Assembly (NCBI GenBank): GCA_008632985.1
Contig: QPGO01000040.1
Coordinates: forward strand, 439,719-503,718
DNA length: 64,000 bases
From: Psammoneis japonica
Taxonomy: Eukaryota
Reading direction: 5' to 3'
Part shown: positions 7,330 through 60,460 of the stretch, one piece after another
How the letters are laid out: each line of letters opens with the position of its first letter
How positions within the stretch are numbered: the stretch's first letter is position 1
Notes under the pieces: generated by a model
Seen by the model: the letters and a program-made list of their open reading frames with translations, nothing else
Databases searched by the model: none
Told to the model about the DNA's origin: nothing
Made by a program: the position numbers and the translations under genes

Positions 7330-9480
7330 GGCAAAAGGGGGGAGCAACACTCTCATTGGGGGCAGCAGCTGCTTCAGCCTTGAAAGCATCCTCCACCGTC
7401 AGAGATGCCGGTGATCACAGCGCAGCACGGTCAGCAGCAGCAAAAACTGAAGCTGCTGCTGGCATTGTGCGCAGCGCCACTTTGGGGTTGGCAGTGGCAG
7501 GTGTGCCATTGGCCAACAATGAGGAAAGGGCAGCCTCAATGGACAACAATTTGGCCCACCATGAGGGTGCCATTTTGGAGTGTGGCATTGCAGCAGCCGT
7601 GCATGATGACAGCCAAAATGCACAGCTGACTTCACTTGGTGCAAAGACAGCACAGGTGTCAGAAGCTTGACAGTGGAGGACTGATGAGAGGTGCAACATG
7701 TGTGGAAATGATGTCAAAAGACGTGCAAACAGCCATCACAAAAACAAACAGCCATGGTGTGAAAAGGAGTCCAGTGCACAAATGGTGCTGTCGTCGACAG
7801 TGCAGCAGAGCTCACACCACAAATGTGCTCTCTGCTTGTGTTGTTGACAATTTGAACAGAGAAGCATGTTGTGTCATCTTGCAGCAGAGGGGCCCCTTTT
7901 GAACTTTCATGCAAGCATTGCCCACAAGAACCTGACAGAGATCTCTGCATCAGTGTGGGAATGACGACACCGCTGAGACATGCTTGCTGCAAACAGCACA
8001 CTGTTGCATGCAGGCAGAAGTTGTGATCTTCAAAGAGTGCAGAGGGCCCAGCTGGAAAATGCCCACTTTGTGAAAAAGACACCCACAGATGTTGGCAACA
8101 AGCTTGCTTGGAAAACAAAGGTGGTTTGGTCAGTTTCCAACCCGCTGTGTTGGGATTGTCAGCCCCAACACAAGCTCTCCTGCCCAGGTGCTCTAGCCAA
8201 AAGCCACAGCTCTGTGTTTCTTTTTTGAGCTGCTTGCAAGGCAGCCATCCACCCAGGCAGCTTTTCTTGACAGTCATTGAATTGCGGGATTTGATGATGC
8301 AGCCCTCTGTCTCTCTCTCTGTCTGTCTCTCCATGTTTTTCATCATGGCAAACCTCTTGCAAACTGTCTTGTGCCCCAGCACACAAGTTGGCGCCAGTGC
8401 CACCATGAAAGGCAGAAGGCTGTCCTGGGCAAAGAAGCAGTGGGCATCCCTCCAGCAGTGTGTGCAGAGCTGCAGGTGTTGCACCACTGGCTCAACAAGA
8501 GCTTGGCAATGCAGTGCCTTCCCAACTTTTTGCAGCCAGGCTGATGTTTTCCTGAACCAGGAGCCCCCCCTCTGCAGGATTGCTCAGCTGCCTCCACCCT
8601 TTGCTGCTCTCAAGAAAGGAGACACATTTTGCTCCAGCATGTCAAGCAGGCACATGGCTGCTCATCATGCATTTTTTGCTTGCCAGGCACACCCTGCTGA
8701 TGCTGGGCTGCCACCTGACCTGCAAGATGACATTGAGGCCAACACACCTTGACACAAAATTTGAGTTTGATGATCCAACAGTGTGTTTGGAGAGGTGCCC
8801 CACCTGCTCTGGTGGTGCTGCAACACACAATGCCCAATGCTTTGTGGACTCATCTGTTGAGACCACATCCATTGGGTGATGCCCTCATTGACTCTGTTCC
8901 TTTTGGCACTCAGCCAGCTTGGGAGTGCTTTGTTTTCAGACACTGCTTGAGGCATCATTTTTTGTTCACTCTGACCACTGCAGCGGCTTTGCACTTGGAG
9001 TTCTTGATGGAACTTGAGTCTCAAATGCCGGGTTTCATTGTTTGGTTCTGCACAGGTGCACCTTGTGTTTTGGAGGTTGTCAAACTGCTGACTCACTGTC
9101 ATCACCTCATTTGTCACCGCAACAACATGCTTTGCTCTCTGACTCCAGCAGCACTTTGGATTGGCTCATCAAACTTTTTGCACATGATGTGCAACAGAGT
9201 GAAGTGCTTTTTTTTCTGGAAGCTGCACTGTGTGACCATTGAACATTGAATGAGGCCACCAGAAAATTCTCAACAAGAAGACAGTGTCTTGACATCTTCT
9301 GTCTCATGGAAAGTGGCCATGAAGGAGCTTGTTTGGATGGAATCTGAGTGCTGGGGTGGGAGGATGGAGAAGCTTGGCCTCATTGCAGGTGGCAGGGGGG
9401 TCAAAATGGAGCAGATGTGCAGTGCTGCCTGATGATCAAGCCACAGTTGATGCCACAGATGTGTCAAAGCCTGCTCACTC
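7330..9480. other. CpG/TpA-depleted block A (left part): decayed sequence of unknown origin, possibly a transposon relic
   Basis: Very few CG or TA dinucleotides, excess TG/CA, many overlapping Cys/His/Gln/Trp-rich ORFs. No intact partner recognised in the window. Confidence 0.7.
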
Positions 9481-9489
9481 CTTGAAAAG

Positions 9490-10350
9490 CTTTTTTAGCC
9501 CTCTTCTTTAAACACATTTTTGGATGACATTAGGGTTGTGTTTCAAGAACAAAAAGGCAAACATCTCTTGTCTCACTGTGAGGACCCACACCATCACATT
9601 TGGCCAAATCATCACAGTGGGCATGCCTCTTTTTTGCAGCGCAGCAACAAGAAGCAATGTCCAGAGGTGTCTCCTTGACAGGCACAAGAAAGCAAGGTTC
9701 ATTCTCCAGTTTCTTTGGGTGCAATCTTTGGCTCACAACAAATGGGCAAATGAAATTTCTCAAAATCTGCTGGCAGTGCCAAAATGTCTTTTGGAATCTG
9801 AGTCAAAAGTTTGCAAAAAACGGTTGGACAGATCCAACACTTTGAACGATGTTTTTGGCACTCCCCAGGTTGTGCAGAGGGCAACTGGAAATGACAAGGT
9901 TGCCCCACACTTGGTCAAACAGAGCACACAGTCAGATTGACCAGACTGCTTGTGCCATTTTGAAGCAGTCCACTCAAGCCTCCTGCAACTCAAAAGTGCA
10001 CGTGCAAGTTGAGGAGCTTGCCTGGCCAGCGGTCTCTCAGCGGGGCGGAGCTCAGCCGCGTGAGATGGCGCCACTCTCTGAGGACAACATGTGTGCAGGT
10101 GCTGCTCAAGATTCAACATCTTGAAAATTCTAGATGGAAACTGAATGAGAGTGAGTCACATGATGCGTCCTGTCAAAGACAAAAGAGACACTCAAAACTT
10201 GGCAGCTGGAAGAGCTCGTCGGGCAAACCCAGCGATTTTTGTGCAGAGTTGAGTTCTCCAGCAGCTGCTCCTCTGGGCAGTGCTGGCAAGCAATGACAGG
10301 GGTGATGACAATGCGGTTTAGAGTCACCAATGGTGGTTGCATTGTCATTT
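9490..10350 (-). pseudogene. Decayed LRR-family gene relic (block A, right part)
   Basis: Translation IWPNVM..FAFLFLKHNPNVIQ matches the C-terminus LWPHVL..FVFWFLKHNPNYVK of the LRR gene at 38359-39533. CG/TA-depleted. Confidence 0.55.
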
Positions 10351-14934: not shown

Positions 14935-15520
14935 ACCGCAGGCAGTGCACACAGATTGATGTGTGGCATCATTTTTTGAGAGTGCAGCAGATGCCGAAGT
15001 CCAGAAGCAGGGTCTCTGGCTCCTCTCCCACACTTGTCCCCCCTGCCCATGCAGTGGTGTGGAGAGGCTCTGTCTGCTGTGTGCCAGATGTTGCTGGCTT
15101 TTCTGTGCAAACTTTCGAAAAAGGGGGAAAAAAAAGCTGCTGTGGAGTCCAGAAGAAGTGCCAAAGCAAAAGAAAAGATGCAGGTTGCAACACAATCTAA
15201 ACTAGCAAAGACCAGAGTATTGGTCAAAATGGAAGGCAGAAAGGCACAGCACAAAGGCAAAAATGGACACCAGCAAGTTTGGCTGGTGCTGCAAACAGAG
15301 GCAGCGATGCCAACCAGCGCTGCTTTGGTGCTGGCAAGGTGAGGCAACATGTTGTGATCCTCAAAGCAAAAACTCACAAAAGTTGGAAATTGAATCTGAG
15401 AGTTCCTGCTGGTTCTGATGGATGCTGGACTGTTGGGTCTCTGCTGCTGCAAACCATCTGTGTTGTTTTTGGTCCTGTGTGCTATGGCCGCTGGTTTGCT
15501 CGTGGTTGTGCAGGTCACGG
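14935..15520. other. CpG/TpA-depleted block B, origin unknown
   Basis: Same dinucleotide signature as the other blocks, flanked by AT-rich normal intergenic DNA. Confidence 0.65.
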
Positions 15521-25026: not shown

Positions 25027-25329
25027 GGTGGTGTTGGTTTCTTTGCGCTGTCAGCGACGACGCGAGTGCCGAGGTTTTTTCGGTCCGTTGACGTTGAAAT
25101 TATATATCTAAGTGACTGTAGTAAATGTATGTTCTTTTTGAATGGGTTCTTGATCAACGTAAAAGACAATTCCGAAGGACAACGACTCACTCGACTTGGT
25201 TCTGCGATTGTCCCGCCCATGACCCCTGACCGCAGACTCTCTAGCTAAACCGAGCTGGCTGCTAGAGGGAGAGCTTGTCGCAGCCACTCTAGAATGGAGG
25301 TTGATTAGCACAGCAGCCACCCCAATCAA

Positions 25330-27710: not shown

Positions 27711-27910
27711 AGAGGGCGGCGGCCTCGGGATTGTCGTGGGAGAATGGAATGCAGGTCTACACGTCACGAACGAAACCTCCGTGTTGAAGATTCGACGACA
27801 TTCCAACGCAAATCATACGACGCAGGCCAGACATTTGCGCGGGAAAGGCAATCACTACACTTGAGTAGAAGCTTCTCATTTTTTCGACTGGATGATTCGT
27901 TCAGCTGACC

Positions 27911-33260: not shown

Positions 33261-33498
33261 CGAGAGAGCTACGATTCTGTGAGGTTTTTCTTCTGGGCCT
33301 TGTGTGTACTTCCACTGCAACAATGATGGTGTGAGCATGCAAAAAACATGTCTTTCATTGGCGGATAGATTAAAATAGTTTACAATCTGTGGCGCTGCTG
33401 CTTTCCTGAGACGATCCCGCACTCTCTGCTTGATTAAAGGGCTGCATGCAGTGCAAAGGTTGGATTATGGCTTGCTGCACTCTACTTGATTCCCCAGC

Positions 33499-42461: not shown

Positions 42462-44666
42462 TTACTTAATTCTTCGGAATACGAAAACTGTATCTGTCGA
42501 TGTGCTTCCTCTCATGATTCTCAAATCGTTGTCCAGGTATGTCATGTCGAGTTGGTTGAGTGGACCTAAACTCTTCCAATGATCTGCTCGTGTGCTAGTC
42601 GGTCCATACATTACTCGATCTGGAGTTACACTCATTATCAACGTTGGCTCCCCGGTAAAGAGAGACACGCTGCCTCTTAAACTCCAATCACCATTTACTC
42701 TCACATCAAACGATGCTGTATCAGGATTCACTTCTATACGTTCAATGTATTCCATATCAGTTACGTATCTTCGTTCGACACAAAACCAGAGATTCCTAGT
42801 TAGAGTGAAACAAATCATGAATATCATTCAAAGAACCAAACAAAGCACTCACTTGTTAGCTTGAAGCTTTTGCACCAGTCCACCAAACCGTCCATTAGGA
42901 AAGCTGCCTCCCAGCCCACTTAATCCCTTATTGAATTTAAAGGCGGAAGAGCTTGCGTATAGTAGCTCCCAGTCTCCCGCTAGCTCTGTTTGTTCAATAG
43001 CTCCACCAGACAACTTGATCTGATTCGTCGGCTCTGTTTCCATTGCGCTAAGGATGGTGAGAACTTGTTTCTCTTCCAGTTCTGTACTTTCCAGTCCACA
43101 CGGAAGCCGTTCAGTATCACTGTTCAAATTATCCAAAAATGAAAGAAGTTGCGCCTTGATTGCACCATCGCTGTCTTCGGCCGGCTCTGGAGCTTGCGGT
43201 TCTTCCTCGTCATCCTCATTCTCAAACAAGTCATCGATTGCTTGATAGAGCGCCAAGAAACCCTCTTCGTTTAGCATTTCACGCTTCTCCTTTACAATAC
43301 CTTCATAGATGTTCTGGAGCTCTAGCGGAAGCAAGTCTCCCTCTGCAAGCATGTCCTGCAGGTCCCCCCATCGTTTCAGCTCCTCCATACCCACCAGTTG
43401 CTCTTCATTGGCCAGCTCGGCGAACAGAACTCCAGGGGGTAAGTCGTCTCCAGTTACCATCGGCTTGTCCACAATAACCTTTTCCACCGTGTCATTTTCA
43501 GAAACTATATCAGTGTCGTCGTTGTCCTCTTTATCTTCCTCGTCATCAAACACAAACAGTTCGTCAAGGGCGACGTTGAAGCTCAGGAACCCGTCGACAT
43601 CGAGTTGCTCCGGAGATCCCGGGCTTTTCGCTGTCTTTGACCATATGTCATCAAACTCATCCTCTCCCAACAATCCGTCCTGCAAAAGCTTTTCGATTTC
43701 ATCCCACTTTCGCAGATCGCTTTTTGTTATGAGGCCATTGTCGTCACCGAGGGATTTGAATAGCTGTTCCAGTTCCTCTTCGTCTCTGGCAACATCATCG
43801 TCCTGCTCCTCTTCGTTGTCGTCTGTGCCGACGCTAACATCTACATTGCTATTGGCTACTGCCGTACCAGACGTTTCGACATTGTTGTTCTTTGGTGCAT
43901 CCTGTTTCTCCGCCAAGACGTTTTGATCGTCATTCTCCTCGTCGTCCTCGTCTTCAAACATATCGTCAATGTCACGATAAATCTGAATAAACGAATCTAC
44001 ATCTATTCTCTCGTCATCCGCTTCTTCTGGAAATTTTGGCGCCGCATTCCAAATGTCAACCAACTCTTCCTCTAGTAAATCGCCATCTTGCTGTGAGCGT
44101 GTAACAACGAAGGAAAGAGAAGAAAACGCGCATGAGAAAATTACGCAAGTCGGATCATGGATCATGCCATCCGAGACATTAACATGGTTCATGTCGGCCT
44201 CGTATTGGATAAAAGTGGTTTCCTGCATTGTTTGCGGAGTAATTCTAGAGCAGTTTGTCATCGTCATTGGCCCAACGAAACGCTCTCCACGTCAGCTACG
44301 TACCAACATTTCTGCAATTGCTGCAACCTTTTTGAGAGTACCAATCGTCATGAGCCCATCACTGTCACATTGTTTTGAAAATAGCGCTTGCAAACCTTCC
44401 CCATCTTGTGCCTCAACAAACAAAGCATCGTCGTCGTTGTCAGTACTACTTGTCGATACCGTCATGAACAGCTGTTGTGAAGACGATTGAATTCTGCTCC
44501 GAGAAACAAAACATCTTGCTTGAGAATCATTGCTCAGAAACGCTTGAAAGGGCCATCTCGAAGTTGAAGGTGATGTTAATGATGTGAATGCATAAACTCC
44601 TCTTTTCAGAAAAAATGTGAAAGACAACAACGAAAACAAGCCCAGAGACCCCCTCATTTTTCTCAT
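42462..44666 (-). CDS. Plastid-targeted protein: acidic EF-hand-like repeats plus C-terminal PAP/fibrillin domain
   Basis: Leader ending VYA-F, repeats of W..I..LL.DG.L...E...IW, and fibrillin motifs LAGDWELLYAS and TYLDNDLRIMRG. Two introns. Confidence 0.75.
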
Positions 44667-45095
44667 TTCTGTGATTAGTTGGTCTGCAACTTGATGAACT
44701 TTCTTATGGTGGAGCTTCGTCGTTCCTCCAAGACCAAGAAAACTTTTTTCCTCCGTCTGTTGTGTTACTCCTGGGTTAGCTTTATCGGATGCAGACCGAA
44801 TTTTAGCAAACCATTGTCCCCTCACACGATGAAGAACTGAATCAGGAATGCCCACAACGATCTTTCGAATGTTGCAGTCGTCACAATTTCCCTCCACCTG
44901 GACCGTTGGACGTTCGCCTTCGAAGATTGTACCAGGAATCGTGTAGGTTCTACATACGAATGCGCTCATACGTTCTTGTGTACAAACACATCTACGAGCT
45001 CAAACGACGGAGCTCGTGATGAAGCCTGTCCGTAAACCCAACTTTCATCCGCTCTTCTCATCTTCACGTCACACAAACGCACCCGAGCATCGAAA

Positions 45096-45773
45096 ATGGC
45101 GTTCCGACTTGCCTTGACTACAGCGGCCCGGCGTCAACTGCTTCGCGGATCATCGCTTGCCACAGTGTCAAGATCAGTACCAAGGGCATTCTTCTCGTCC
45201 GAGGCAGTTGTTCCTGGCGTCGGAAAGGGCAAAACATCAACCGGATTGGTGAGTGCGAATTATTTAGCTCATGTTTTCTTGTTTTTCGTTGCTGTGTGTC
45301 GGAGGAGTTGTAGCCCCGTCATGCGTATAAAATCATCTAGTACTTGAAGAAGTTTACATGATGGGTGAGCTTACCTTCTGACTGTACTTTAGGTTGGACT
45401 TGCGGTGGATCACGATGCTGTTCCCAAAATGATTGTCAAGTACCAAGCCCTCTTGGATCGCATGGCGGAGAGTGACATGCCGGAGGATGCTCATTACCGT
45501 GTGACAGTAGAGAAGATTGCACGCTATCGCATTCAGGCAGCCAAAGATAATTTGGATGATCCCGAAAAGGTAGAGGAATTGTGCAACTGCGGACAAGTGG
45601 AAGAATTGGTACAACAGGCGGATGATGAAATGGAGGTGTTGGAAATGTATCTGAGGAATCGTTGGTGGGAGTATGTGAAACCGGCAGATATTGAATACAA
45701 CCCTACTGAGGAAGAAGAGCAAGATGATCCAGAATATGCTGAAGATCTCAAGAAGAACGAAGAAAGTAGCTAA
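45096..45773 (+). CDS. NDUFA5: Mitochondrial complex I subunit NDUFA5 (B13)
   Basis: Mitochondrial-type presequence, then [32 protein letters not shown]. Intron 45249-45392. Confidence 0.88.
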
Positions 45774-46497
45774 GAGGAACAGCATTTGTGAGAAGCTCGA
45801 TGTTTACCTTGATTGGATTGGTTGTTCGCGCATTCGTCCATAAGTGATGAATCGGATTGTAGAAATCATGTTTATTATTACGTGTCTGTTTGATGTGGTG
45901 TTGCTTCACTATCGTGTACGTAGCCCCTCTGTTGACAAAGCACGTGCTAAACGCTGTTTCCTGTTCCCTTTCTTCTGGCGACCAGGAAACTACGGATGGG
46001 GCTGAAGACTTGATGTTACAAGTTGAACGATTCAAGGATTTGAACGCACAGCTTGTTGAGTTGTGCCAACAAGTAGCGTCGAAAGATGAAAAGAAGACGC
46101 CATACATTTGCAATGTCGAGATTGTGGCGAGGCATCGTTTTGAAATAGGAGTTGCAGCTCGCGGGGAACAAGAAATACGAAGCAAGTGTGACTACTATAA
46201 TTCGACAGTTCCTGAGCTCATCAAACAGGCAGAAAAGGAGATTGAGGCACTTAAAGCATACATGGCGTCAAGAAGAATGTAATGGTAAGCTGGCTGTACA
46301 TCGTATGATAAGAGATGCATCTGGCATGCTAATTGTCGTTTTCGTCGCTTCAGTCAAAAGCGGTAAAAGGATTTAGAATGGCTTTCTCTCACATTGCTGT
46401 CTTCTCCAGTCTTTTCTTTTTAGTTTTCCTAACCTTGCAGGGTGTTTCTTTATAAAAGAATTGATAGAAGAATGAAGGACCTGTAACGTACTACGTA

Positions 46498-47278
46498 CAA
46501 GTAAAAAACCGGTCTGTCCTCTACTTTTTGGTGTCTTTGTAAAAGTCGATTTTGTTTCCAAAATCGATGGGGTTTTCACTATACAATGCTTCTTACGTCT
46601 TCTACCATTGTCAATTGACATGTTCTCATGCCTGTGTTCACCAGAGTCACGGTTCTGAACGCCATAACTAGTGTCGCAAGAGGGGGCTTTTTTTGCTCCA
46701 AGAGGACAGACCGGTCGTCAGTAGAATTCTACGTGGAAATGTACCGAGAAATTTACAAAGTTTTTTTTCTCGCTTGTGGCCATCGTCTCTTGCAACGGCA
46801 GCATGGTAAGTCCATAATACACACTCGTATCGAATTATATGGGCCCATAAGCTATGATTGATTGCTGTTTTGCTTTGTTACTCGCACTGTGTATGCAGGT
46901 GTTTGTCACTGGTCATCATTCATCATGACACATGGGGCAACTTCTTGTTGTCGAAAACTCAACAAAACGCAGCGCGATACAGTGTTAAAAAATATTAAAT
47001 AATGAAGATAATTAATGAACGAAAATCTCTGTAAAATTTCAGACGGTGCATTTTTTTTAGAAAATGGCGATGTGCCGTTTTTAGCCCCCGATTGCGCTAT
47101 GATGCAACATTCTTTTGTCCCGCTGTTTTCACCATGATCTCTATTGACGTTCTAACTGAAGTTTGTAGGTTGGGTTTGGATGGCAAACAATGGGAAGTTA
47201 CTCATAGAGTTGCTTTACAAAGTTTGCTCTTCCAAGAGGACAGACCGGTCGGAAGAGGACAGACCGGTTTTTTACTTG
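46498..47278. mobile_element. Tc1/mariner-type MITE candidate, 781 bp
   Basis: Perfect 28-bp inverted repeat (46495-46522 and 47254-47281) that includes a flanking TA on both sides. Extra internal copies of AGAGGACAGACCGGT near 46700 and 47235. Confidence 0.7.
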
Positions 47279-47454
47279 TACCGTCGATCTTCGATTTGGG
47301 CAGTCTTGCTGTCATGTTTTCCGCGCGATTTGAGATTTTTTCCTTGTGTTCCGCGCGAGTTTGAACGTTACCCCCGCGAGTTTTTTAGCGATCCACGAGC
47401 TTGCAACGGCTACTTTCAAAAATCCTTCCGCGCCTCCACAGAACACTATGTACA

Positions 47455-48639
47455 ATGGCGGCGCGATCGTCCTCAGTCGACATCAGTATGTCAATTCCAA
47501 GAAAAGCGCTAAAGGCGATAAGCTGTAATCAGTCTCAAGACATCACGACTCCACTTTCAAAGGAACAGAATGGTGTCGCGAAACGAAAAGAAAAGTCTGA
47601 TTCTCCAGAAGTCGGTGATACCGAACGAGAAGTGATGTTTGACAAGGTGTGTAGAAAGCGATGCGCTCGAGACTACGATGGAGATTTACTTGACAAAGGT
47701 ATCCGCGAGTGGTCTTTGGACGACTTTGAGTTCGTGAAACCGTTGGGAAAGGGAGGCACAGCTTCTGTGTTTTGTGTCAAGGAGAAACAATCACGGCACC
47801 ACGTTGCACTGAAGGTACAAAAGGCAACAGACGAAGGCATACTTGAAGTCGATGTCCATGAGTCACTTTGCCATCCGTCGGTTGTCAAAATGATAGATTA
47901 CTTCTATTCTGACGAGACTTTTGGACAGCAGGATTGTGCTGAAAGAGAGAAGAAGGGGGAGGAAGACGATGAACAGGGCATTTATCCCAAGAAGTACCTG
48001 TGTATGATCATTGAACTCTGCAACAAATCACTCTTTGATGCTATTCGTGATGCAAAAAGAGGATGCTTTTCGGAAGAACAAGCAGCGTGTTACTTTCGTG
48101 GTGCTGTCAACGCGATGCAACACCTGCATGATAACGAAACTATCCATTGCGACTGCAAGTCACTGAATTTCTTGCTCACCAAGGATGATAAAATCAAGCT
48201 TGCCGACTTTGGAATGGCTGTGCCGTTTGACGATAAGGAAATCGTAGGTGGATCGCCAGCTTTCATGGCACCAGAGCATCTAATGGCGTGGCGACTCATG
48301 ACGAACGAGTTCGACTATCGCACGGACATTTACAGTTTGGGCATAGTGCTCTTTGAGATGCTAGCGGGATACTTGCCATATGAAGTGGTCGAGAATGATG
48401 AAGATTCTCTGTTGGCAGAAATGGACGCCTTGGCCATCGATGAGGGGGATTTCTCTATTCCTATCTTGGATTTACGAAAGCTAGATGATCATACAAGTGA
48501 GGAGCCATTCTACATTCCGCCACCCATCTTCCCTGAATCCATGTCAGCAGAAGCTCAAGACTTGATCTTGAGACTAACAGAACCCACAGTGGAAGATAGA
48601 ATATCACTTCGAGAAGTCAAAGAGCATGCTTGGCTATAA
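47455..48639 (+). CDS. Ser/Thr protein kinase (Aurora-like)
   Basis: WSLDDFE..LGKGGTASV, VALK, HCDCKSLN, ADFG, GSPAFMAPE and DIYSLG motifs. Intronless. Confidence 0.85.
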   Translation: MAARSSSVDISMSIPRKALKAISCNQSQDITTPLSKEQNGVAKRKEKSDSPEVGDTEREVMFDKVCRKRCARDYDGDLLDKGIREWSLDDFEFVKPLGKGGTASVFCVKEKQSRHHVALKVQKATDEGILEVDVHESLCHPSVVKMIDYFYSDETFGQQDCAEREKKGEEDDEQGIYPKKYLCMIIELCNKSLFDAIRDAKRGCFSEEQAACYFRGAVNAMQHLHDNETIHCDCKSLNFLLTKDDKIKLADFGMAVPFDDKEIVGGSPAFMAPEHLMAWRLMTNEFDYRTDIYSLGIVLFEMLAGYLPYEVVENDEDSLLAEMDALAIDEGDFSIPILDLRKLDDHTSEEPFYIPPPIFPESMSAEAQDLILRLTEPTVEDRISLREVKEHAWL

Positions 48640-48989
48640 CAACATCACACGTGGAGCAACGATGAGAATGGTCCCCTTTAGTCCCTGGGTTGGGAATTTG
48701 AAAGCAAAAGGGCATTATTATTGATGGGAAGGAAAAGGTTGTGATGGAAATAATGCAGCCTCAGAAATGCGATTAGATCGTAACGTACCATATACCGTTA
48801 GTCATGGTTTGGCATCGCACGGAGAAAAAACCTGGTTTTGTTTTTCGATAGATTGATTCGTGATGCATTTTAGATGCTGGAAAATTTGCGTTTGAGTTGA
48901 ATTGCCGGTCAGCCAGCTGCTCGCAAAGTATGTCTATAAGCCACTCATGTGCCAGAAGCTTCTTGTGGACAAGTTTGACGACAAGTGGG

Positions 48990-50400
48990 TTTGTTGGCCA
49001 AGAACTGCTTTTCAATGCATGAGGTCATGCAGAAAGCAGCACACACAAACTCCACAAAACCAATGGAGCCCAACCTTGTTCATCTTGCAACAGCAATCTG
49101 CCAGGGTTGGTTTTGCTCCCATCAAGCGAATGTGACAAGTCCATCTTGAAATTGAATGGAGAGGATCTTCAGCCATGGCTGACAGCTGGAAACCCATGTC
49201 TTCCTATTTTGTGTTTGGCATTGGCCACTTTGCTGCTCTTGGGCATTCTCATGAGAGTCACTGTGTGGGCCCACTTGCTGGCAGCAACACTTCACCTCCA
49301 ACCCTGGTGCCCACACACCCACTCCTGCCATGATGCCAACTTCGACATGATGAAATGGCAAGACAATTCATGGCCTTGGCGAGGCAACACAGAGTCTCAA
49401 ACATGCTGAACCAACAAGTCAATGTTGCCAAAAGGGAACCCCACAAGGTTTCCTGCACCACTTGTTGCTCTTGCCATGGTTGCTGCAGTGGCTGTGGTTT
49501 GCCTGGAAGTCCTCAACAAACTTTGACATTGTGATGTGATGGAGTGCCTGCTGATGCCACAATGCATTTCATGCGAAGGTTGGCGAGATCAGCAATGAGC
49601 ATGTTTTCATTTCCAAAGTGTTGCCCCAGACATCCACTGTGCAAGTGCTGGGCAAAGTGTCTTCTCTTCAATGACTCCATGCCCAGGCTTCTTGTGCTTC
49701 CTGCTTGTTTTGGATGATGGTTCGACAAAGCAGCCCAGCACACCCGAGTGCAAGGCAGTGGATTGAACCAAAAACCAGTGCCCCATGGCCCACAGGGCTT
49801 GACCACAGCTGTGGCATGGCAGTGGCAAAAGCAACAACAGCCAGTCAGCCAGCTCCAATTCCTGCAGCATTCATGGACATGGCATGAGGTGCAGCTTGAA
49901 TGTTCATTTTCATGTGCTCGTTGAAGCAGCGCCATCACTTTGCCTGGTGCTTGTGGTTTCCTGTGACAGACTGGCTGGAAAGGAGGCAACAATGCAACCC
50001 TGCACTCAGGGTGCAGCAGCAGCCACCACCAAGCTCTCACACAAGTGGCGATGGCCACACCCCAAAGTGCGTCGCTGTGTGGAATGATGGAGCTGGCTGC
50101 CCGCCGCCCAAGCTCCACGAGATCATGTGCCCACATTGTTTGGCCACCACTGGCTGGTGATGCCAAACATGCAGGCATTGCCAGCAAGTGCACCCAAAAA
50201 TGTTCAAACCAGGGTCACAGTGCAAAACACTCCGAAACAGAACACCTGCTGTGCTTTCCATTTTGTGACATGCAGGCAGCACAGCCCTTTCATGGCACCG
50301 CCAACTTCGTCATCAGCGCAAGTGCCGTTGTGGCCGAACATATGTCATGTGCACAACTGCCGGCACTGCATACACTGCAATGAAAAATTACAGCACATGC
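48990..50400. other. CpG/TpA-depleted block E; left part duplicated at ~53500-53660 and ~56740-57100
   Basis: 49170-49350 aligns to 56860-57045. Dinucleotide signature ends abruptly at ~50400. Confidence 0.7.
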
Positions 50401-50791
50401 TGTAGCTACTAGCTCTGCTAGTAGCCACCACCAGCTCTCTCTAGCTAGAGAGTAGAGAGAGGGCCAGAGAGACTGCTGGCTAGTTTGAGAGACAGAGCCC
50501 CCTTCTACCGTATAAAATGAAGATTAATTTTGTACAGTATCGTCTTTTGAACGCAACGGAAAAATAATGAATAATGTCCTCTTAACTGTATCTGCATTAA
50601 CCATATAATACTGACTTTCTCTTTATTCTTGAATACATCTATTAAAAAATTTCCTTCCAACGCTTGGCGTTCCCGCCATCTGCATCATCATTCGCACACA
50701 TTTTTTATTTTGATTTTGTGTGTGTGTGTGTGTAGTAATAAACCGGCCAACACTTACTTTATGATTTCGCATTGAAGCCTTTCAACTAACC

Positions 50792-52995
50792 ATGAAAATG
50801 GGAAACGCCGCTTTGCTCGTCACCTTTTTGCTGATCCTGCAGTCACCTCGTGTTTATGGAAGACAGTGGTGTCCCGTTTGGCCCTTTCGATGTCCTCCGA
50901 CAATTAGCGAACAAGAACGCACCGATCTGTGCGATGCGTATTGTAACGAGTTCGCTGTGGCATGCCCCAATGTGGATATAACATCTCTTGCCATATCCAG
51001 TGAGAAAGCTACTGGTTCTCCCGTCAGTCACAAAGAATGTGTTGCAAAATGATGGATTCAAAAATGAAATTCGATGGAACGCCCCAAGACTTTGACAATG
51101 TCGATAGCATTCAATGTCGAATGAATCATGCGCGAATGCAAATCCAACAAAAGGACTTGGCAAGCTCCGACCATTGTCTTCATGCCATGATTCGTGGTCG
51201 ATCACGGTGTGATCCGAAGAACCCTGAAGCGCGCGCCATGACCGTTCTCTTTGATATCGGCCGCAGCGTGTTTTATGATCCTTTGGGCAGTACGCTTACA
51301 GCGGTGAATCGATTGGCGAGCTATGCTGTGGGCGCTATCTATCTATCTGCTTTTCGAGAACGGCTGCTGGTATCCTATCCCTATGTGGAGATTCCAGACG
51401 AAGATGTGACTTGTTCCGATCCCGAAGACACTCGGTTCCGAACGGCAGATGGTTCGTGCAACAATGTGGCCATGCCAAAGATGGGAGCCACCGGAACGCA
51501 AGTGAGTCAGTCGTTTGATTGAACACATGCGATTGCCTCGTAATCGGTTAATTTTCTTTTTGCTCCGTTTCTTCTTTCTGTTTTGTTTAACGGTCAGTTC
51601 ATACAACTCTTTCAGCCGTCCACGCGACAGGGACTTCCGAGTCCCGAAGCGGTTGCAGAGATTATCAAGAGACCAGAGTCATCAGTCCGCCCGGAGCGAC
51701 TCGCTCCCTTTTCGCAACTTGCGGTCGCTTGGATTCAAATGATGACACATGATTGGTTCGCACATTCTCCCAATGATCCCGGCAAAAATCAAGTGTCGCA
51801 TTGGTGGGATGCCTCGCAATTATATGGTTCCAAAGAAGATCAGGCGACACCGCTCCGTTTGGACGATGGCAAGCTGCATCTGGATATCAATCAAGAAGTA
51901 GATTACGAGGACGGCAGCAACATTCCTCGTACAGGATTTACAGACAATTGGTGGGCAGGTCTGCACGCCATGCACACTCTGTTTATTCGGGAACACAACT
52001 ACATTGTGGACCAATTGGAGGCGCAGTACAAAGGAATGTACGATGAAGAGGAGAAGTATCAATTGGCACGCCTCTCGGTGTCGGCCCTCATTGCCAAGAT
52101 TCACACTGTGGAATGGACACCAACCTTGCTGGATAATGATGTTTCGACCATTGCCCTAGAGACGGCGTGGTGGGGAATCGAGTCGGCGATTAAAAAATAC
52201 GGAAGTGAATTCTTGTTTGATCTGGGCTTTCCTTTACTTGGCGACTTTGCAACGCCGCACGCAGGATCCCACTCGACCGAAGAAACCTTGTACAATACAA
52301 CCTTTCAAATGACCGAGGAATTTGTGGCTGTCTATCGCATGCATCCCCTTCTTCCAGACCACATAAAAGTTCCGGACCCAGCGACGGGAGGAACCAAAAA
52401 GTTTACGTTGAATGAATTGGCCTTTGCCGATGCCCGGCAACTTGTTGAGGAAAAGACCACCCAATCCTTCTTGGAAGGGTTTGGCAAGACTCCGGCGCGC
52501 GCAATTACCTTGCAAAATTATCCACGACAATTGTACGGCCTGGAAAAACCGGGCATGCCTCGCATTAACCTGGCCGCCATTGACATTCAGCGAGACCGAG
52601 AGCGCGGTCTTCCTCTTTACAATGATATGCGCAGACTGCTCTTATTGGAACCCTATGAGTCGATTGATGATTTGACTAGCGATGCAAACGATCGTAAGTT
52701 GCTTAGATCCGTCTACAACGACATTGAAGAAGTCGACCTCATGGTGGGCAGCATGGTGGATCAACAATTACCTTCTGGCTTTGGTTTCGGCATTGTTCCA
52801 TTCCGCATCTTTCAAGCGTTTGCCACGAGAAGGATTTATAGTGATCGATTCTTCATGCAAGACTTTAAGAAAGAGGTTTACACAGAATGGGGTTTCAATC
52901 ATGTGCAGACGGAGACGTTTTCTTCCGTGATTGCTCGGCATTATCCCGAGCTAAAGTCCAAAATGCCCGAGAATCCATTCATGAATTGGGCATAG
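50792..52995 (+). CDS. Secreted heme peroxidase-cyclooxygenase superfamily protein, alpha-dioxygenase-like, with N-terminal Cys-rich domain
   Basis: RTADGSCNN, WIQMMTHDW, HWWDASQLYG, TLFIREHN, AKIHTVEWT, EEFVAVYRMH and RDRERG motifs. Intron 51502-51597. One base missing at ~51051. Confidence 0.9.
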
Positions 52996-53097
52996 CTTAG
53001 TTCGAGCAGTCGATTAGAAAAGTGATGGTATCGCAATAGAGTCAATCAATGTTAGTCGTGTCGAGTTGAGCCATACGGTACGTGAAAAACTATCTGG

Positions 53098-53680
53098 CCG
53101 AACCCATCCTAGAAGATAGGATATCACTTGGAGAAGTCAAAGAGCATGCTTGGCTCAAACAGCATCACACGTGGTGCAACGAGGAGAACGGTCCTTGCAT
53201 CAACAGCATTGATGGGGAGTAAAAGGTTGTGATGGAAATAGCGCGGTCACAAAAACGCGAATACATCGTCACGTATACTCATTAGTCATGGTACGGAGAA
53301 AAGTCCGGTTTCGTTGCTCGGTAGATTGATGTACCGTAGGTCCTATTTGCCTTTGAGTTGAACTGCCGGTCAGTTATGCTCGCAAAGTATGCCCACAATG
53401 CCAGTAAGCTATTCGTGTGTCAGAAGCTTCTCTTGGTTCCGCGTTTTCTGTACGGTGTCTTTGGATGACAAGTGGGTTTGTTCCACTTGTATTCTTAGTA
53501 AGAAAGCAGTGTCGCAAGCTCAACGAAACAAAAGGAGCCCGACGTTGTTCATCTTACAGCAGCAATCTGCCAGGGCTTTCAAGGATGGGTCTTCAGGTCC
53601 TGCTCCCATAAAGGAACATGACAAATCTGCCTTGAAAAGAGTTGAGAGGATCTCATGACAGAGTAATAATCTTTTAGCAT
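53098..53680 (+). repeat. Duplicated fragment of the kinase 3' end and downstream region (partner ~48578-49175)
   Basis: GAAGATAG.ATATCACTT.GAGAAGTCAAAGAGCATGCTTGGCT occurs at ~48591 and ~53113, with continued collinear similarity. Confidence 0.8.
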
Positions 53681-53689
53681 GACAAGCGA

Positions 53690-55695
53690 TTACTGTATAT
53701 AAAATTGCGAACTGGCATACACAATGCCTCGTCCATCGGGCAGGCGAATCTTGAATTCCGCCAAGTAACAACCAGGTCCACCGAGATGGTTGTACCGCAG
53801 TTCCGGTTTGAACACCCAATTGCCTTTTTTTGAAAAGAGACGCAGTTGTGCATTTGTGCGCCATGGCCTGTCTTCCTTTTCATCACCAAGTTTTATAATG
53901 CGATGTACCCTTGGCTCGAGTCCGACCAGGTCGTCCGTCACCAGCTCGTTCGCGCAGGTCTTCAACCGAATCTTCAAAGCCAGCCTCGAAACGTTAGTGT
54001 GCGTGGCTCTGCTCTTTAAGTACGATGGGCATGATGAGAACCTGTATCGAGGCTTGGAACGAATGCGGAGTCGGCCCATGGGTGGCTTGCCAATGACTCG
54101 CAGACGATTGTGGTCGGCATTGAACGGACAAAGGTCGCAAGCGTCTCCAATGCCGTCGCCGTCGCTATCCTTTTGATCCGCATTGACCACCGACGGACAA
54201 TTATCCACGTTGTCCTGCACACCGTCGCCGTCACGATCGTTCTTTGACAGCTCCAACACAAAAAGCTTACGCCCTTGGCCATCATCGGCAGTAAAGTACA
54301 GCTTGTTGTCTTCAATGGGGGTCAACAAACGCGGAGAAGATTTCGAATCCTCGTCACCCGGTTGGAGATCCAGTACAATTTCCGTTTTGTGACGCAATGG
54401 ATCGTGAACCCAAAGCTCAGACCCATGCTTTTTATCGCTTGCACTGAAAAAGAGCTTTCTATCCAATGGAGTTAACCGTGATGGGTTGGACGACTTTTTG
54501 CCGAAAAAAATATCGCGCACCATTTGCGTTTTTCCAACAACAGGATCATGTACCCAAAGCTCCGATCCGTGCGTGTCTGTCCTGGCTCTGAAATACAGCT
54601 TGCCATTCAAAGGTGTTATAGACTCTGGGACCGAACTATCTCTACCAGGACGAATGTCCGTGACCATTTCCGTTGTGTCACTCGCTGGATCGTGAACCCA
54701 AAGCTCCGTTCCGTATTTGTATCCATCCGTAGCTGCAAAGTACAGCTTTCCATCCATGGGCACAAGTTCCAGTAGAAAGAAAAACGATGATTCGGAACCC
54801 GGCATGATATCCTTGACTATTTTTGTGATGCCACTGGATGGATCATGTACCCAAAGCTCCCTTCCGTGCGCTTCATCCGCTGCGCGGAAGTACAGCTTTC
54901 CATCCATGGGGGTCAAGCCCAGTGGAGACGAAGATTCCTCACCAAAATAGATGTCTTTTATCATTTCCGTAGTGAGATTCAAGGGATCATGTACCCATAA
55001 CTCCCTTCCATGAATCCCATCATCCACAGTAAAGTAGAGTTTACCGTCCATTTGTGTGAAATACAATGGAAACGAATTACCGCTTCCGGGATGAATGTTC
55101 TCTATCATTTTCGTTTTGCCACGGACCGAATCGTGAACCCAATGCTCATTTCCGCGCTTTCCGTCGTTTGCAGAAAAATACAACTTGTCATCCACAGCTG
55201 TCAAACCCCCTGGATCGGAACCCTCGCTCCCAGGGTTAATGTCTTTTAACATTTCTGTTTTGCCAGTACTGTAGCGGGATCGTGCACCCAAACCTCCGAA
55301 CCCTCTTCAAACTCTCCATAATTGAAAATTTGACTGGAAATAAAGTACAGCTTTCCATTCATAGGTACCAAATCGCTGCTTCCAAAAACATCAGGAGAAA
55401 AAGTCTCTCTGACATTTGCTGTTGTGTTGAGTACGGGGTCGTGCACCCAAAGATAACCTCCGTACCTCTCATCAACAGCTGAAAAGTAGAGCTTGCCATC
55501 CATGAATGCCATTTCTTGCGTGGGCTCCAAGGTGGTTACTTGATTGAGCTCAAAGGACAAAGTTTCTGTTAACTGACGATTGGTTTGCTCTTCCTTGTTT
55601 CGCAGACGAATCTCCTCGTTCGCCAACGGAGTGCGAAGAACTTTTTTTGCATCAGCAATGCAGAGGAGCGTAACAAAGCCCAACAACAGCAACAT
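53690..55695 (-). CDS. Secreted ELWxxDGT-like repeat (beta-propeller) protein with thrombospondin type-3 repeats
   Basis: About 8 repeats of GKLYF.A.D..HG.ELWVHDP, then [27 protein letters not shown]. Signal peptide. Frameshift near 55270. No introns seen. Confidence 0.85.
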
Positions 55696-56464
55696 TGTTT
55701 GAAACGAAGCGTCTCGGAGGAGAGAGCTTAGAACATGTGCTTCTGAGAAAAAAAGCTGTGTGTTGCGGCGATGTTTGCCAAACGCGGTTGCGGGTTGAGA
55801 GTTCTGTTCTTGTTTCATAAGTCTCAAAGGACATTTTTCAATTGCCCTTCAGAATGACTTAACGAAATAATCGAGGCAATGATGAGCTCTTGCGGTTCAC
55901 TGCTCGTCATTTGTTGGCAAAGTCCGATGAGCGCCGTTTTGTAAGGAAGGCACAGTTTGCACTCGTCGGACAGATCATCGGTGGCAGCCGGAAGGGATGA
56001 GGTGGGGGATGTAACTTGCAACAAAGAGTCAAACGAAAAGCATCCTTTGAGATCACTTCAAACAAAACGACGAGCTTCTGCAGACGAAACCACCTCTCTG
56101 CCATTTGGTGTCTTGAACTCCGCTGCATGACAACCCACACCACCAAGCTTTTTAGAATCTGCTTTAAAGACCCAGCTTCATTTCTTTTTGGAAAGCTTCA
56201 GTTTTCCATCCAACAAACCAGCATCCTCAACCACACGGTTGCCACCAACTTTTGCAAGGCGCGCAGTTGCCAAGACCCTGTCGCCCGCAAGTGCGCCATT
56301 CCCCGATTTTTTGCAAAGTGAGGTGCAACAATTTTTTTTTTGTTTGATGTTTGTTGCATTCAAACACTTAACCCTGAGTCATGATGCATCATTTTCAAAT
56401 TGTCATGACATCAATGAGGCGTTCACAGGGCCTTTGTTGTCTCACATTTTTCCCTTCGCCGATG

Positions 56465-56675
56465 ATCTTGAATTCTGCCAAGTTGCAGCCAGGTCTGCTG
56501 AGATGGTCATGCTGCAGCTCTGGTTTGAACACCCAATTTGAACCCAAGTTCATTTCTGCACTTTCTGTCATTTGCACAAAAATGCAACTTCTTGTCACCC
56601 ACACCAGCTGTCAACCCCCTGGTGGATCAGAGCTCTCGCTCCTTCAGAGTTGATGGCTTGTTCCAGGGTTGAGTT
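56465..56675 (-). pseudogene. Internally deleted, hypermutated relic of the ELWxxD-repeat gene
   Basis: 56470-56538 matches 53752-53820 and is joined directly to 56539-56670, which matches 55134-55238. Confidence 0.75.
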
Positions 56676-57480
56676 GTGCACATGGACATGCAAACATTCA
56701 TTTTGGCCCATTTTCACAAGGTGCCAACTTACAACAATCTCTTTGACAGCAGCAAAAAAAGCTTGTTTTTCATGTGCTGTCAAAAATGGGTCTTGAGGTT
56801 TTGACCCCATCAAAGAATGCAACAAGTCTGTCTTGAAATTGAGTTGAGTTGATTTTCTGCCATGGCTGATGGCTGGAAACCCATTTTTTACAATGCACAC
56901 TGGGCACTGGCCACTCCCACTCTTGGTGCACTGATGAGAGTCATTGTGTGGGCCCACTTGTTGGCAGTGACACTTTCTTCCACTTCACCTCCAACCTGGG
57001 TGCCCATGCCCCACACCCACTCCCGCCATGATGCTTGCTCCGACGAAACAAGGCAAAATGGAGAAACAGTTTGTGGCCCAGGCAAGCAACACAGTGGAAG
57101 AGCCTGGCACACCCAAGTGCATGCAGCAGACTGGGTTAAAAGCCAAGATCCCTGGGACTTGATGAAGCAACGTGGTGGCACAACATCCAAACAGCCAACA
57201 GAAGAAGAGAAAACATGAGCCTGCTGCACAAAACCAGTTTTGAGGCCCAAACACATTACATTCGATCATTTGCAGCATGAGACAACATTGTTTTGTCTCT
57301 GGACAACAAAAAGTGGCAATGAACAACATCAAAAAATCCATTCTTTAGAGATTTCAATTAAAAAAAATTCCTCCAACATGTTCCCGTGGCCATTTTCACA
57401 CATCGGTTGTTTTGATTTTCCTTTTTTGTGATGAACAAATAAAAGCACATCTCATTGAAGCCTTTCAACTTTCAACCAAC

Positions 57481-59640
57481 CATGACATGGGAAATGCTGT
57501 GTTGCTTGTCACTTGTTTGCTGATCCTGCAGTCACCTCGTGTTCATGGAAGACAGTGGTGTCCCGTTTGGCCCTTTTGATGTCCTCCGACAATCAGTGAG
57601 TTTGCTGTGGCATGCCCCAATGTGGGTGTAACATCTCTTGCCATGTCCAGTGAGAAATCTGCTGGCTCTCCTGTCAGTCACAAAGAATGTGTTGCAAAAT
57701 GCATGGATTGAAAAATGAAATTTGATGGAATGCACCAAAACTTTGACAATGTCAACAGCATTCAATGTCAAATGAATCATGCGCAAATGCAAATCTATCA
57801 AAAGGACTTGGCAAGCTCCAACCATTGCTTGCATGCCATGATTCATGGTCAATCACAGTGTGATCCAAAGAGCCCTGAAGCACGGCCGTGACAGTTCTCT
57901 TTTGTGTCGGCAGCAGCTTTTTAATGATCCTGAGGGCAGTGCCCTTGCTGCTTTAAATCGATTGGTGAGCTGTGCTGTGGGCGCCATCTGTCCATCTGCT
58001 TTTCAAGAATGGTTGCTGGCATCCTGTCCCTGTGTGAAGATTCCAGACAAAGATGTGATTTGTTCCAATCCCAAAGACACTCGGTTCCAAACGGCAGATG
58101 GTTTGTGCAACAATGTGCCCATGCCAAAGATTGGAGCCACCGGAATGCAAGTGAGTCAGTCATTTGATTGAACACATGCTCCATTTCTTCTTTCTGTTTT
58201 GTTTGATGGTCAGCTCATGCAACTCTTTCAGCCATCCACACAACAGGAACTTCCGAGTCCCAAAGCAGTTGCAGAGATTGTCAAGAGACCAGTCGAATGG
58301 ATTCAAATGATGACACATGATTGGTTTGCACATGATTCTCCCAATGATCCTGGCAAAAATCAAGTGTCGCATTGGTGAGATGCCTTGCAATTACATGGCT
58401 CCAAAGAAGATCAGGCAAAACTGCTCCATTTGGACGATGGCAAGCTGCACCTGGATGTCAATCAAGAAGTGGATGATGAGGACGGCAGCAACATTCCTCA
58501 TGCAGGATTTACAGACAATTGGTGGGCAGGTCTGCACGCCAAGCACACTCTGTTTGTTCAGGAACACAACTGCAATGTGGACCAATTGGAGGCGCAGTGC
58601 AAAGGAATGTGTGATGAAGAGGAGAAGCATCAACTGGCATGCCTCTTGGCATCAGCCCTCATTGCCAAGATTCACACTGTGGAACAGACACCAACCTTGC
58701 TGGATGATGACATTGCAGCCATTGCCCCAGAGACGGCATGGTGGGAAATTGAGCTGGCAATTAAAAAACATGGAAGTGAGCTCTTGTTTGATCTGGGCTT
58801 TGCTTTGCTTGGTGACTTTGCAACACTGCACACAGGATCCCACTTGACTGAAGAAACCTTGTGCAGTGCAACCTTTCAAATGACCAAGGAATTTGTGGCT
58901 GTCTGTTGAGTGCATCCCCTTTTTCAAGACCACATGGAAGTTCCGGACCCAGCAACGGGAGGAACCAAAAAGCTTGTGTTGAATGAATTGGCCTTTGCCA
59001 ATGCCCAGCAACTTGTTGAGGAAAAGACCACCCAATCCTTCTTGGAAGGGTTTGGCAAGACTCCAGCATGTGCAACTGCCTTGCAAAATTGTCCACAACA
59101 ATTGCACGGCCTGGAAAAACTGGGCATGCCTTGCATTAACCTGGCCGCCATTGACATTCAGCAAGACCAAGAGTGCGGTCTTCCTCTTTACAATGACATG
59201 TGCGGACTGCTCTTGTTGGAACCCTGCAAGTCAATTGATGATTTGACCAGTGATGAAAATGATCGCAAGTTGCTCAGATCCATCTGCAATGACATTGAAG
59301 AATTCAACCTCATGGTGGGCAGCATGGTGGATCAACAATTGCCTTTTGGCTTTGGTTTTGGCATTGTTCCATTCTGCATCTTTCAAGCTCATGCCACAAG
59401 AAGGATTTATGGTGATCAATTCTTCATGCAGGACTTTAAGAAAGAGGTTTGCACGGAATGGGGTTTCAATCATGTGCAGACGAAGACGTTTTCTTCCGTG
59501 ATTGCTTGGCATTGTCCCAAGCTGAAGTCCAAAATGCCCAAGAATCCATTCATGAATTGGGCATGGCTCAGTTCAAGCAGTCAATTAGAAAAGTGATGGC
59601 ATTGCAATGGAGTCAATCAATGTCAGTCATGTCAAGTTGA
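57481..59640 (+). pseudogene. Nearly full-length hypermutated copy of the peroxidase gene, with intron and flanks (block F)
   Basis: Collinear with 50791-53070. In-frame TGA stops, small deletions, catalytic YRMH changed to C*VH, retained intron. Confidence 0.95.
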
Positions 59641-59699
59641 GCCACGCAGTGCGTGCAAAACTGTCTGCCCTTTTGTTGCAACACATGTCATCTCTAAAC

Positions 59700-60460
59700 T
59701 GCTCAGCCGGTGACATCTGATTTGCTCCGCCATGTTGGGCCACGCATCAAAGCTAAAGGCACACAGTGGCAATGACAGCCCGCCAAACACACACCTGGAA
59801 GTGACTCAGTTGCTTTGCAGTTGCAAAACACTGCAATTGTCGAGATGCCCGATTTCAGGTGGGTGAGATCTGAAACAAATGCACCCCCTTCCTGGCATGA
59901 GTTCAGAGGTGACCCATGTCTGCAAGAAGTCAACAAGACTGCACAATGTGGCTAATCCGGCTGTTTGCATTGACACAGCCTCCCAAGCACAGCTTGGAAT
60001 TCATCCAGGCACAGCAACAGTTCAAGTCCAAGACAGATGGCTTCTTGAGATTGGCGCACTCAACGGGGATCTTGGCAAGACCATGACATGCATGAAGGCT
60101 CAATGATTGAAGGTCGTGCAATTGTCCAACACCAATGGGTGAGGTCCAAAGAGAGTCAACCTCGACCATTGGCTAAACTCTGCGGGCAGCTGTGTGCATG
60201 AAACAATTGTCAGCAACACAAGCTGACCAACTTCCGGGACAGACGGGTCAACCCATCACCATCCCAGCTCAAGAACTTCAAATCGATTGAAAAAGCTGAT
60301 TTCAGAAGGCCATTCAACCATTTTATTGCAATGCTTGAGGTTGATGTCTCGGGAATTCATGAAGACTTTGCCTTCATCTTCTGCACTGAGGAGTTGAGAA
60401 GTGGTGTTTCGGCAGCTGTTGCGAGTGCTCCAAGCAAGCCATCCGAGAAATCGCCCCAGA
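59700..60460 (-). pseudogene. Decayed LRR gene relic
   Basis: Fragments GQLHDLQSLSLHACHGLAKIPVECANLKK and INLKHCNKMVEWPSEI in CG/TA-depleted DNA. Confidence 0.6.

Follow-up and report, generated by a model that had tools for sequence, protein, structure and literature searches.

What sets a few short stretches of a diatom contig apart from the ordinary genes beside them, and what stripped them of two dinucleotides? The question is raised by 64,000 nt of Psammoneis japonica DNA (GCA_008632985.1, QPGO01000040.1:439,719-503,718, forward strand), which is called the window here, supplies all coordinates and is the DNA to which all the results apply. A first-pass annotation of the letters alone had described six sharply bounded blocks depleted of CG and TA between normal genes, and had read their composition as a fossil map of silenced chromatin. 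We find that the blocks are the saturated footprint of a locally confined mutational process, specific for CpG and TpA, in a diatom.

Six blocks depleted of CpG and TpA

CpG and TpA observed/expected (o/e) ratios were calculated in 500-bp sliding windows, and a two-state hidden Markov model (HMM) was run on the positions of CG and TA. The HMM returned exactly six depleted segments, 14.3 kb in total, which contain 143 CG and 44 TA. The remaining 49.7 kb contains 2,654 CG and 1,957 TA, at densities of ~55 and ~40 per kb. This segmentation is the one that the first-pass annotation had proposed, and the segments match its blocks within tens to ~250 bases:

7476-10000: block B1, HMM core with 15 CG and 4 TA (drawn at first as 7330-10350); TA-free from 7250
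14938-15482: block B2, the smallest (545 bp), with 4 CG, 3 TA, 68 TG and 50 CA
25307-27716: block B3, 19 CG and 5 TA; a decayed copy of a gene termed gene U and its 3´ flank
29832-33219: block B4, 28 CG and 6 TA
48938-50298: block B5, 17 CG and 1 TA; upstream of an expressed peroxidase gene
56305-60409: block B6, 60 CG and 25 TA; the least saturated of the large blocks

The 500-bp windows in the blocks have a CpG o/e of 0.03-0.4, a TpA o/e of 0.00-0.13 and a TpG/CpA o/e of 1.6-2.1, with a G+C content of ~0.47-0.55. When the blocks are pooled and compared with the rest of the window, the o/e values are 0.18 vs 0.97 for CG, 0.05 vs 0.57 for TA, 1.83 vs 1.19 for TG and 1.81 vs 1.19 for CA, while the base composition is nearly the same. 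B1 in its wider outline (7330-10350) has 33 CG and 6 TA vs 340 TG and 344 CA. In B6, the survivors amount to 27% of the CG and 15% of the TA that would be expected; the corresponding values for B1, B3, B4 and B5 are 15-22% and 2-5%. The four pyrimidine-purine (Y-R) steps CG, TA, TG and CA together occur at 0.242 per base outside the blocks and at 0.229-0.256 inside, which indicates that the lost CG and TA now sit as TG and CA.

The five longest TA-free runs measure 1592, 1302, 1302, 1237 and 1136 bp in a sequence with a median TA spacing of 16 bp, and the longest TA-free gap in 200 dinucleotide-preserving shuffles averages 253 bp and never exceeds 487 bp. Windows of 500 bp with at most 10 CG+TA number 21 of 128, compared with 0 in each of the 200 shuffles, and a two-state description is better than a one-state description by 699 nats. 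The CG+TA counts per window are bimodal and the edges sharp, rather than unimodal and gradual, and the o/e values of the two dinucleotides are correlated (Spearman 0.52, p = 2e-10). No seventh small block was detected, as 300-bp windows outside the six blocks never contain 6 or fewer CG+TA events. Within the window, the CG/TA-depleted blocks are confirmed as real and as lying far beyond chance.

Direction of change in duplicated genes

The window contains two tandem segmental duplications (~25445-32955 vs 32955-40465, and pieces of 48580-53821 vs 56465-59670), and in several duplicate pairs one copy lies inside a block and the other copy has normal composition. The copies concerned are as follows:

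33499-35058, - strand: gene U, an intact 519-aa open reading frame (ORF) without a Pfam family and of normal composition; partner of the relic in B3
26541-27572, - strand: gene U relic in B3 (gene U protein match, E 3e-35, 39% identity)
27758-29831, + strand: 2OG-Fe(II) oxygenase gene, copy 1, with its partner at 36000-38100; neither is depleted
38102-39596, - strand: intact LRR gene; normal counterpart of the beginning of B4 and of two LRR relics (in B1 and B6)
~9478-9956, - strand: LRR-gene relic in B1 (tblastn E 1e-10, plus blastn)
50767-53099, + strand: intact animal-haem-peroxidase gene of normal composition (PF03098, E 5.5e-76; intron 51502-51597)
57450-59670, + strand: peroxidase pseudogene, hypermutated, carrying 2 in-frame stops and two deletions (17 bp and 48 bp)

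The intact peroxidase gene (copy 1) and the pseudogene in B6 (copy 2) were aligned. At the 131 aligned CG of copy 1, copy 2 has 52 CA, 44 TG, 6 other dinucleotides and 29 CG; at the 72 aligned TA, it has 41 TG, 18 CA, 4 other dinucleotides and 9 TA. In total, 102/131 CG and 63/72 TA are altered, and 163/174 TG and 146/157 CA are unchanged in copy 2. Transitions per base reach 0.33 (C) and 0.39 (G) in CG and 0.26 (T) and 0.58 (A) in TA, the values for all other bases being 0.020-0.032. The excess at CG and TA is ~30-40 times the background after correction for saturation and with all background change charged to copy 2. Changes of A to G or T to C make up ~40% of the changes in this pair, and no dinucleotide is mutated twice. 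Gene U and its relic in B3 display the same pattern of CG/TA to TG/CA.

The direction was read from 12 diatom outgroup peroxidases. Among the 89 residues at which the two copies differ, the outgroup majority sides with copy 1 at 56 and with copy 2 at 3; at 15 it matches neither copy, and at a further 15 it gives no decision (the best named matches of the protein are in Fistulifera and Odontella). The 17-bp deletion in copy 2 is frameshifting. CG and TA are converted at similar rates upstream of the pseudogene, in either exon, in the 96-bp intron and in the 3´ flank, as well as at codon positions 1, 2 and 3. Ordinary substitutions in copy 2 are spread evenly over the codon positions (18, 14 and 11), which indicates that it was never under purifying selection. 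The earlier claim that the blocks span genes, introns and intergenic DNA alike therefore stands for the classes of sequence; the recognisable genes, however, are decayed duplicates. Upstream of the two peroxidase units (49392-50767 vs 57094-57450) no homology was found, even with purine/pyrimidine recoding, and a loss of the promoter in copy 2 is our guess. The paralogue alignments and the outgroup polarisation show that the block signature is mutational, a directional change confined to CpG and TpA, and in this respect the reading of the composition as a fossil is upheld.

The surviving CG and TA sites are placed at random (runs z 0.98), without nucleosome-like clustering. TG and CA outcomes form no strand runs (z -0.55 for CG and -1.25 for TA), and whole blocks are strand-symmetric. 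TTAA accounts for 13/46 of the surviving TA, and RTAY is lost most; among CG contexts, GCGC survives best and WCGW is lost most, with a small effect of the flanks. The homologous parts of B5 and B6 contain 9 discordant (TG vs CA) and 42 concordant Y-R steps, and ~10 discordances are expected if every conversion in B5 and B6 was independent and followed the duplication.

What delimits a block

The recognisable content of the blocks consists of decayed duplicates of the peroxidase gene, gene U, the LRR gene and a gene with thrombospondin type 3 (TSP3) repeats, all of which survive elsewhere in the window. B6 is a composite of dead duplicates, which holds fragments of the TSP3-repeat gene (56465-56659), a spacer Y´ (56797-57094), the peroxidase pseudogene and an LRR relic (59987-60157, - strand), and its depletion is continuous across these four unrelated relics and their spacers. 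The first 384 bp of B4 (29832-30215) are homologous to 38102-38491, the 3´ end of the intact LRR gene, and with its final 265 bp the second tandem unit begins. Much of B1, B4 and B5, and the whole of B2, has no recognised content. As a pseudogene is recognisable only via its paralogue, the observation that all the content is duplicated is biased. Along the ~7.5-kb tandem duplication at 25445-40465, both units keep the oxygenase gene, and the decay of gene U and of the LRR gene is limited to the first unit.

None of the 161 block ORFs of at least 50 aa matches a Pfam family of transposable elements (TEs) or viruses; the 119 stop-free block ORFs of 50-89 aa likewise gave no TE or viral family, with a single chance-level match to DUF4200 (E 0.003). 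Homology between blocks is segmental-duplication homology only, with no shared repeat family, and the first-pass view that the blocks are not one TE family is borne out. Long open frames of 289, 241 and 294 aa do occur within the blocks (7714-8583, - strand; 8027-8752, + strand; 26590-27474, + strand). They are rich in Cys, His and Gln, overlap on opposite strands and have no Pfam match, and they are open because the stops TAA and TAG are missing. Such ORFs are artefacts that will mislead gene callers, which is a warning for annotation.

The duplicated content brings to mind repeat-induced point mutation (RIP) of fungi, and a RIP-like defence in which duplicated DNA is recognised, perhaps at meiosis, and then mutated has to be weighed. 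In fungal RIP the only change is C to T, mostly in CpA, which creates TpA; both copies are struck, in strand runs, over the duplicated length. The diatom blocks resemble it in that context-specific transitions occur in duplicated genes: each recognisable block piece duplicates a gene found elsewhere in the window, and the copies of spacer Y in B5 and B6 are both mutated, independently and after the duplication. Diatoms methylate transposons via DNMT5, and many also carry DNMT4, which clusters with its relative, the fungal RIP enzyme RID, and has no known function (PMC9998398).

However, the partner copy has normal composition in every gene pair with a relic (peroxidase, gene U, the 3´ end of the LRR gene and the TSP3 fragments). 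The two 2OG copies, 87-93% identical over ~2 kb, are both of normal composition and keep 83/107 CG and 47/66 TA, with CG changes that are symmetric (14 in each direction). At ~29832, inside a duplicated unit, the state switches: CG and TA are conserved before this point, and after it copy 1 keeps 1/27 CG and 0/17 TA. The duplicated segments end elsewhere than the blocks do, and parts of the blocks are spacers or long stretches without a paralogue in the window. Strand runs are absent, TpA is destroyed rather than created, and the apparent rule that all the content is duplicated carries the bias mentioned above. Homology does not predict which DNA is mutated, which disfavours a RIP of the fungal type. 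Fungal RIP itself fails every defining feature tested (context, mutation of both copies, strand runs and extent), and we regard a homology-triggered, RIP-like process as improbable.

Most of the 12 block edges are 20-60 bp wide, and the right edge of B3 falls within the spacer of two divergent genes. The unit of a block appears to be non-functional DNA that lies between active genes, and a chromatin state would be the natural candidate for what defines it.

Candidate mechanisms and precedents

The explanation that we favour, and hold to be probable, is that a heritable silent chromatin state guides two deamination activities, one on 5-methylcytosine (5mC) or cytosine at CpG and the other on adenine at TpA. 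One or two context-specific DNA-mutating processes would run nearly to completion inside the six domains, and each CpG or TpA step would become TpG/CpA by a single transition. The conversions gather site by site, evenly over the domain and strand-symmetrically, and end within ~50 bp at the edges. Their targets are non-functional duplicates of cellular genes together with spacers, and nearby working homologues stay untouched. The domain would be defined epigenetically, as heritably silent and probably cytosine-methylated chromatin on DNA without an active promoter; from the properties of the blocks we infer control by chromatin or methylation. CpG would be lost via deamination of 5mC or cytosine, and TpA via enzymatic deamination of adenine to inosine in DNA, as proposed for the chlorarachniophyte Bigelowiella natans. 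Given the wider TpA footprint at some edges (see below), two activities may be steered by one chromatin state.

Part of this behaviour is familiar from mosaic methylomes, in which methylated CpG decays gradually to TpG/CpA, the CpG o/e is bimodal and sharp domains lie beside unmethylated genes. The diatom blocks share with such decay the conversion of CpG to TpG/CpA, the bimodal CpG o/e, the sharp domains and the site-by-site accumulation. They depart from it in that TpA is lost too and in that the depletion (o/e 0.03-0.3) is extreme for a unicellular eukaryote. In animals, APOBEC and ADAR enzymes hypermutate retroelements and viruses by deamination; their substrates are single-stranded DNA or RNA intermediates, and the transposed copies bear strand-asymmetric scars. 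Here as there, clustered transitions in a preferred neighbour context are directed against unwanted sequence; in contrast, the diatom change is strand-symmetric and occurs in place, in tandem duplicates of cellular genes.

The loss of TpA has a precedent in B. natans (Mettrop et al., bioRxiv 10.64898/2026.01.13.699255, 2026). Two viral regions integrated in its genome have, in some mutation-accumulation lines and not in others, a mutation rate of ~6e-7 per site and generation compared with 3.5e-10 elsewhere (a ~1000-fold difference). Nearly all of the changes are A to G or T to C, at TpA only, and an ADAT2-like adenine deaminase has been proposed. The larger region, derived from a nucleocytoplasmic large DNA virus (NCLDV), is single copy and transcriptionally silent. 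The B. natans genome has 124 clusters that are poor in TpA and rich in TpG/CpA; the process is aimed at inserted giant-virus and virophage DNA of 25-186 kb, in which 3.3% TpA is still left. Neither CpG nor diatoms are mentioned in the text of that preprint.

As in B. natans, TpA in the diatom becomes TpG/CpA on both strands (59/72 aligned TA in the peroxidase pair), the change is confined to discrete regions without a need of repeated copies, and the host is an alga of the stramenopile-alveolate-rhizarian (SAR) clade. Unlike B. natans, in which changes are almost exclusively AT to GC, the diatom blocks also lose CpG at a comparable rate (96/131 CG to TG/CA). They are also smaller (0.5-4 kb), with near-zero TpA and edges of ~50 bp.

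Several observations weigh against the chromatin-guided explanation or narrow its base. The targets differ from the viral ones of B. natans, as the diatom blocks are duplicates of host genes in which no viral or TE domain was found. The diatom excess of ~30-40-fold is a time-averaged, inferred value far below the ~1000-fold difference measured directly in B. natans. TA in the peroxidase pair has become TG more often than CA (41 vs 18, p = 0.004), an asymmetry that is not seen block-wide. TpA depletion outreaches CpG depletion by 200-800 bp at 3-4 of the 12 edges. Finally, the read check presented below was made with k-mer contigs of DNA run X1 over 44001-64000, which cover B5 and B6 of the six blocks; the run may be the same sample as the window assembly, and the ratios drawn from it rest on 40 listed differences that are assumed to be allelic.

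The edges also bear on the number of enzymes. The first-pass claim that the two depletions are co-located holds for the domains, which are the same six with correlated o/e, but the footprints differ at those 3-4 edges. TpA-only stretches lie at 60410-60630, with 13 CG vs 14.9 expected and 1 TA vs 6.9 expected, at 7250-7475, and at the margin of B6:

55488-56304: TpA-only margin, CpG o/e 0.86 and TpA o/e 0.20

The wider reach of TpA depletion at some edges argues for two activities of slightly different extent and not for one enzyme. The competing view is that one dual-specificity deaminase (ADAT2/TadA-like), recruited to marked domains, edits the A of TpA and the C of CpG without a role for cytosine methylation. 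Most edges are indeed common to both losses, the TG/CA step is the product of both conversions, and the ratio of TA loss to CG loss (-ln survival) varies rather little, at 1.45-1.89 in 4/6 blocks (0.99 in B2 and 2.67 in B5). ADAT2 enzymes are reported to deaminate both A and C in DNA, in work cited in the B. natans preprint (10.64898/2026.01.13.699255). In contrast, the process in that alga is reported in the same text as almost exclusively AT to GC. The flank preferences in the diatom are also unlike, with WCGW favoured for CG loss, RTAY favoured for TA loss and TTAA spared. Together with the TpA-only margin, these points make a single deaminase unlikely, and we rank it ahead of the RIP-like trigger.

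A third chemistry would be a TET/JBP-type dioxygenase that oxidises the 5mC of CpG and the T of TpA, so that mispairing gives C to T and T to C. It would cover with a single reaction the loss of exactly two palindromic Y-R steps, both of which end as TG/CA, and 5-hydroxymethyluracil in dinoflagellate DNA is said to favour TpA. However, a literature search on such bases returned papers on dinoflagellates only and none on diatoms, and T to C on one strand reads in sequence as A to G on the other. We consider this oxidation very improbable.

The X1 contigs fill all 30 bins of 44001-64000 at a word depth of ~55-70x and carry B5 with 0-1 differences. Accurate reads that contain the depleted sequence disfavour a base-calling artefact, which would be the first of two non-mutational accounts; modified bases cause systematic long-read miscalls. 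The second is selection against CG and TA, as in RNA viruses, many of which avoid both CpG and UpA, or through restriction avoidance. The B5 sequence is, however, present at ~60x in the contigs, and the differences elsewhere run in both directions. Selection is at odds with a depleted peroxidase copy that has indels, stops and an even spread of ordinary substitutions over codon positions. Both accounts also conflict with the conserved number of Y-R steps; they are already largely refuted, and we give them hardly any weight.

Among the 40 of 50 window-vs-X1 differences that are listed, 22 are CG/TA to TG/CA or the reverse, with the mutated form in X1 at 12 and in the window at 10. In B6 this class makes up 13/25 of the listed differences, with 91 target dinucleotides at risk, which corresponds to ~7% per target base vs 0.3% per other base (~23x) among those listed; the ratio in the normal right flank is ~4. 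In the margin 55488-56304, 5/5 of the listed differences are of this class. Provided that these differences are allelic, the process continued after the separation of the two haplotypes; in view of the small numbers and of the listed subset, this is only a hint that it may still be active. With respect to position, 38/40 of the listed differences lie in 55488-63006 and 2 in the 11.5 kb to the left (44001-55487); this clustering suggests a switch between heterozygous and homozygous stretches or a haplotype switch in the assembly.

A second run, X2, is labelled 'DNA?' and is RNA-like, as a transcriptome from the same sample would be. Its contigs skip stretches of 96-213 bp, with three GT..AG joints and one CT..AC joint, and they define introns at 45248-45391, 46284-46408 and 51502-51597 (the peroxidase joint 51501/51598). 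X2 contigs lie on the normal peroxidase copy (50785-53238), and the spliced peroxidase contig starts ~490 bp downstream of the end of B5. Neither B5 nor B6 has an X2 contig; the same is true of the normal genes at 47336-48669, 54006-56006 and 60409-64000, so X2 is uninformative on the silencing of the blocks.

Locally targeted TpA hypermutation has been reported once before, in a rhizarian alga and against integrated viruses only. The present blocks would extend the process to a second, ecologically dominant SAR lineage, and they would show that redundant genes of the host itself can be struck. New with respect to the precedent are the coupling to CpG loss, the saturation, the host pseudogenes and the small, sharp-edged blocks. 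A search of the open full-text literature (subscription journals being outside its scope) yielded no account of blocks free of CG/TA, of RIP or of TpA hypermutation in diatoms. A broader proposal, which we put forward tentatively and think doubtful, is that chromatin-guided DNA base editing in diatoms, possibly by one enzyme acting on A and C, rewrites CpG and TpA in marked domains until all are gone, and so permanently erases promoterless duplicates and other unwanted DNA. Together with the TpA editing of chlorarachniophytes, it would then be an old SAR-wide (or wider) defence that operates in vegetative cells and requires no homology sensing.

The paralogue pairs are natural before/after sequences that allow rates, context rules and domain edges to be read directly. 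TA-free runs of at least 1 kb with a conserved Y-R density provide a cheap, sequence-only marker that can be applied to any diatom assembly, and this marker would aid the search for the responsible enzyme and chromatin mark.

With regard to the origin of the window, an aspartate aminotransferase exon has its best matches in diatoms at 64-71% identity, the first named one being Gedaniella sp. The diatom protein matches and the GT..AG introns identify the window as diatom nuclear DNA without a close relative in the protein collection. A metagenome scan with a fragment of this aminotransferase found one locus of 1.5 kb, too short for a block test, and no Rfam match was obtained in the window.

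The intact LRR gene has intermediate values at 38501-39250 (CpG o/e ~0.55, TpA o/e 0.17-0.26), which could be due to codon or repeat composition or could be an early stage of the same decay. It comprises overlapping ORFs at 38359-38922 and 38823-39596 in different frames, which points to an intron or a frameshift. The interval that separates the peroxidase units contains, at 53690-55306 (- strand), an ORF of 538 aa that carries a thrombospondin type 3 repeat; this ORF has internal direct repeats (54397-54756 vs 54838-55194), and truncated fragments of it are found in B6. Adjoining B1, a 523-aa ORF at 4932-6503 (- strand) has two domains of the Cu/Zn superoxide dismutase family (PF00080 in two stretches, E 7e-58).

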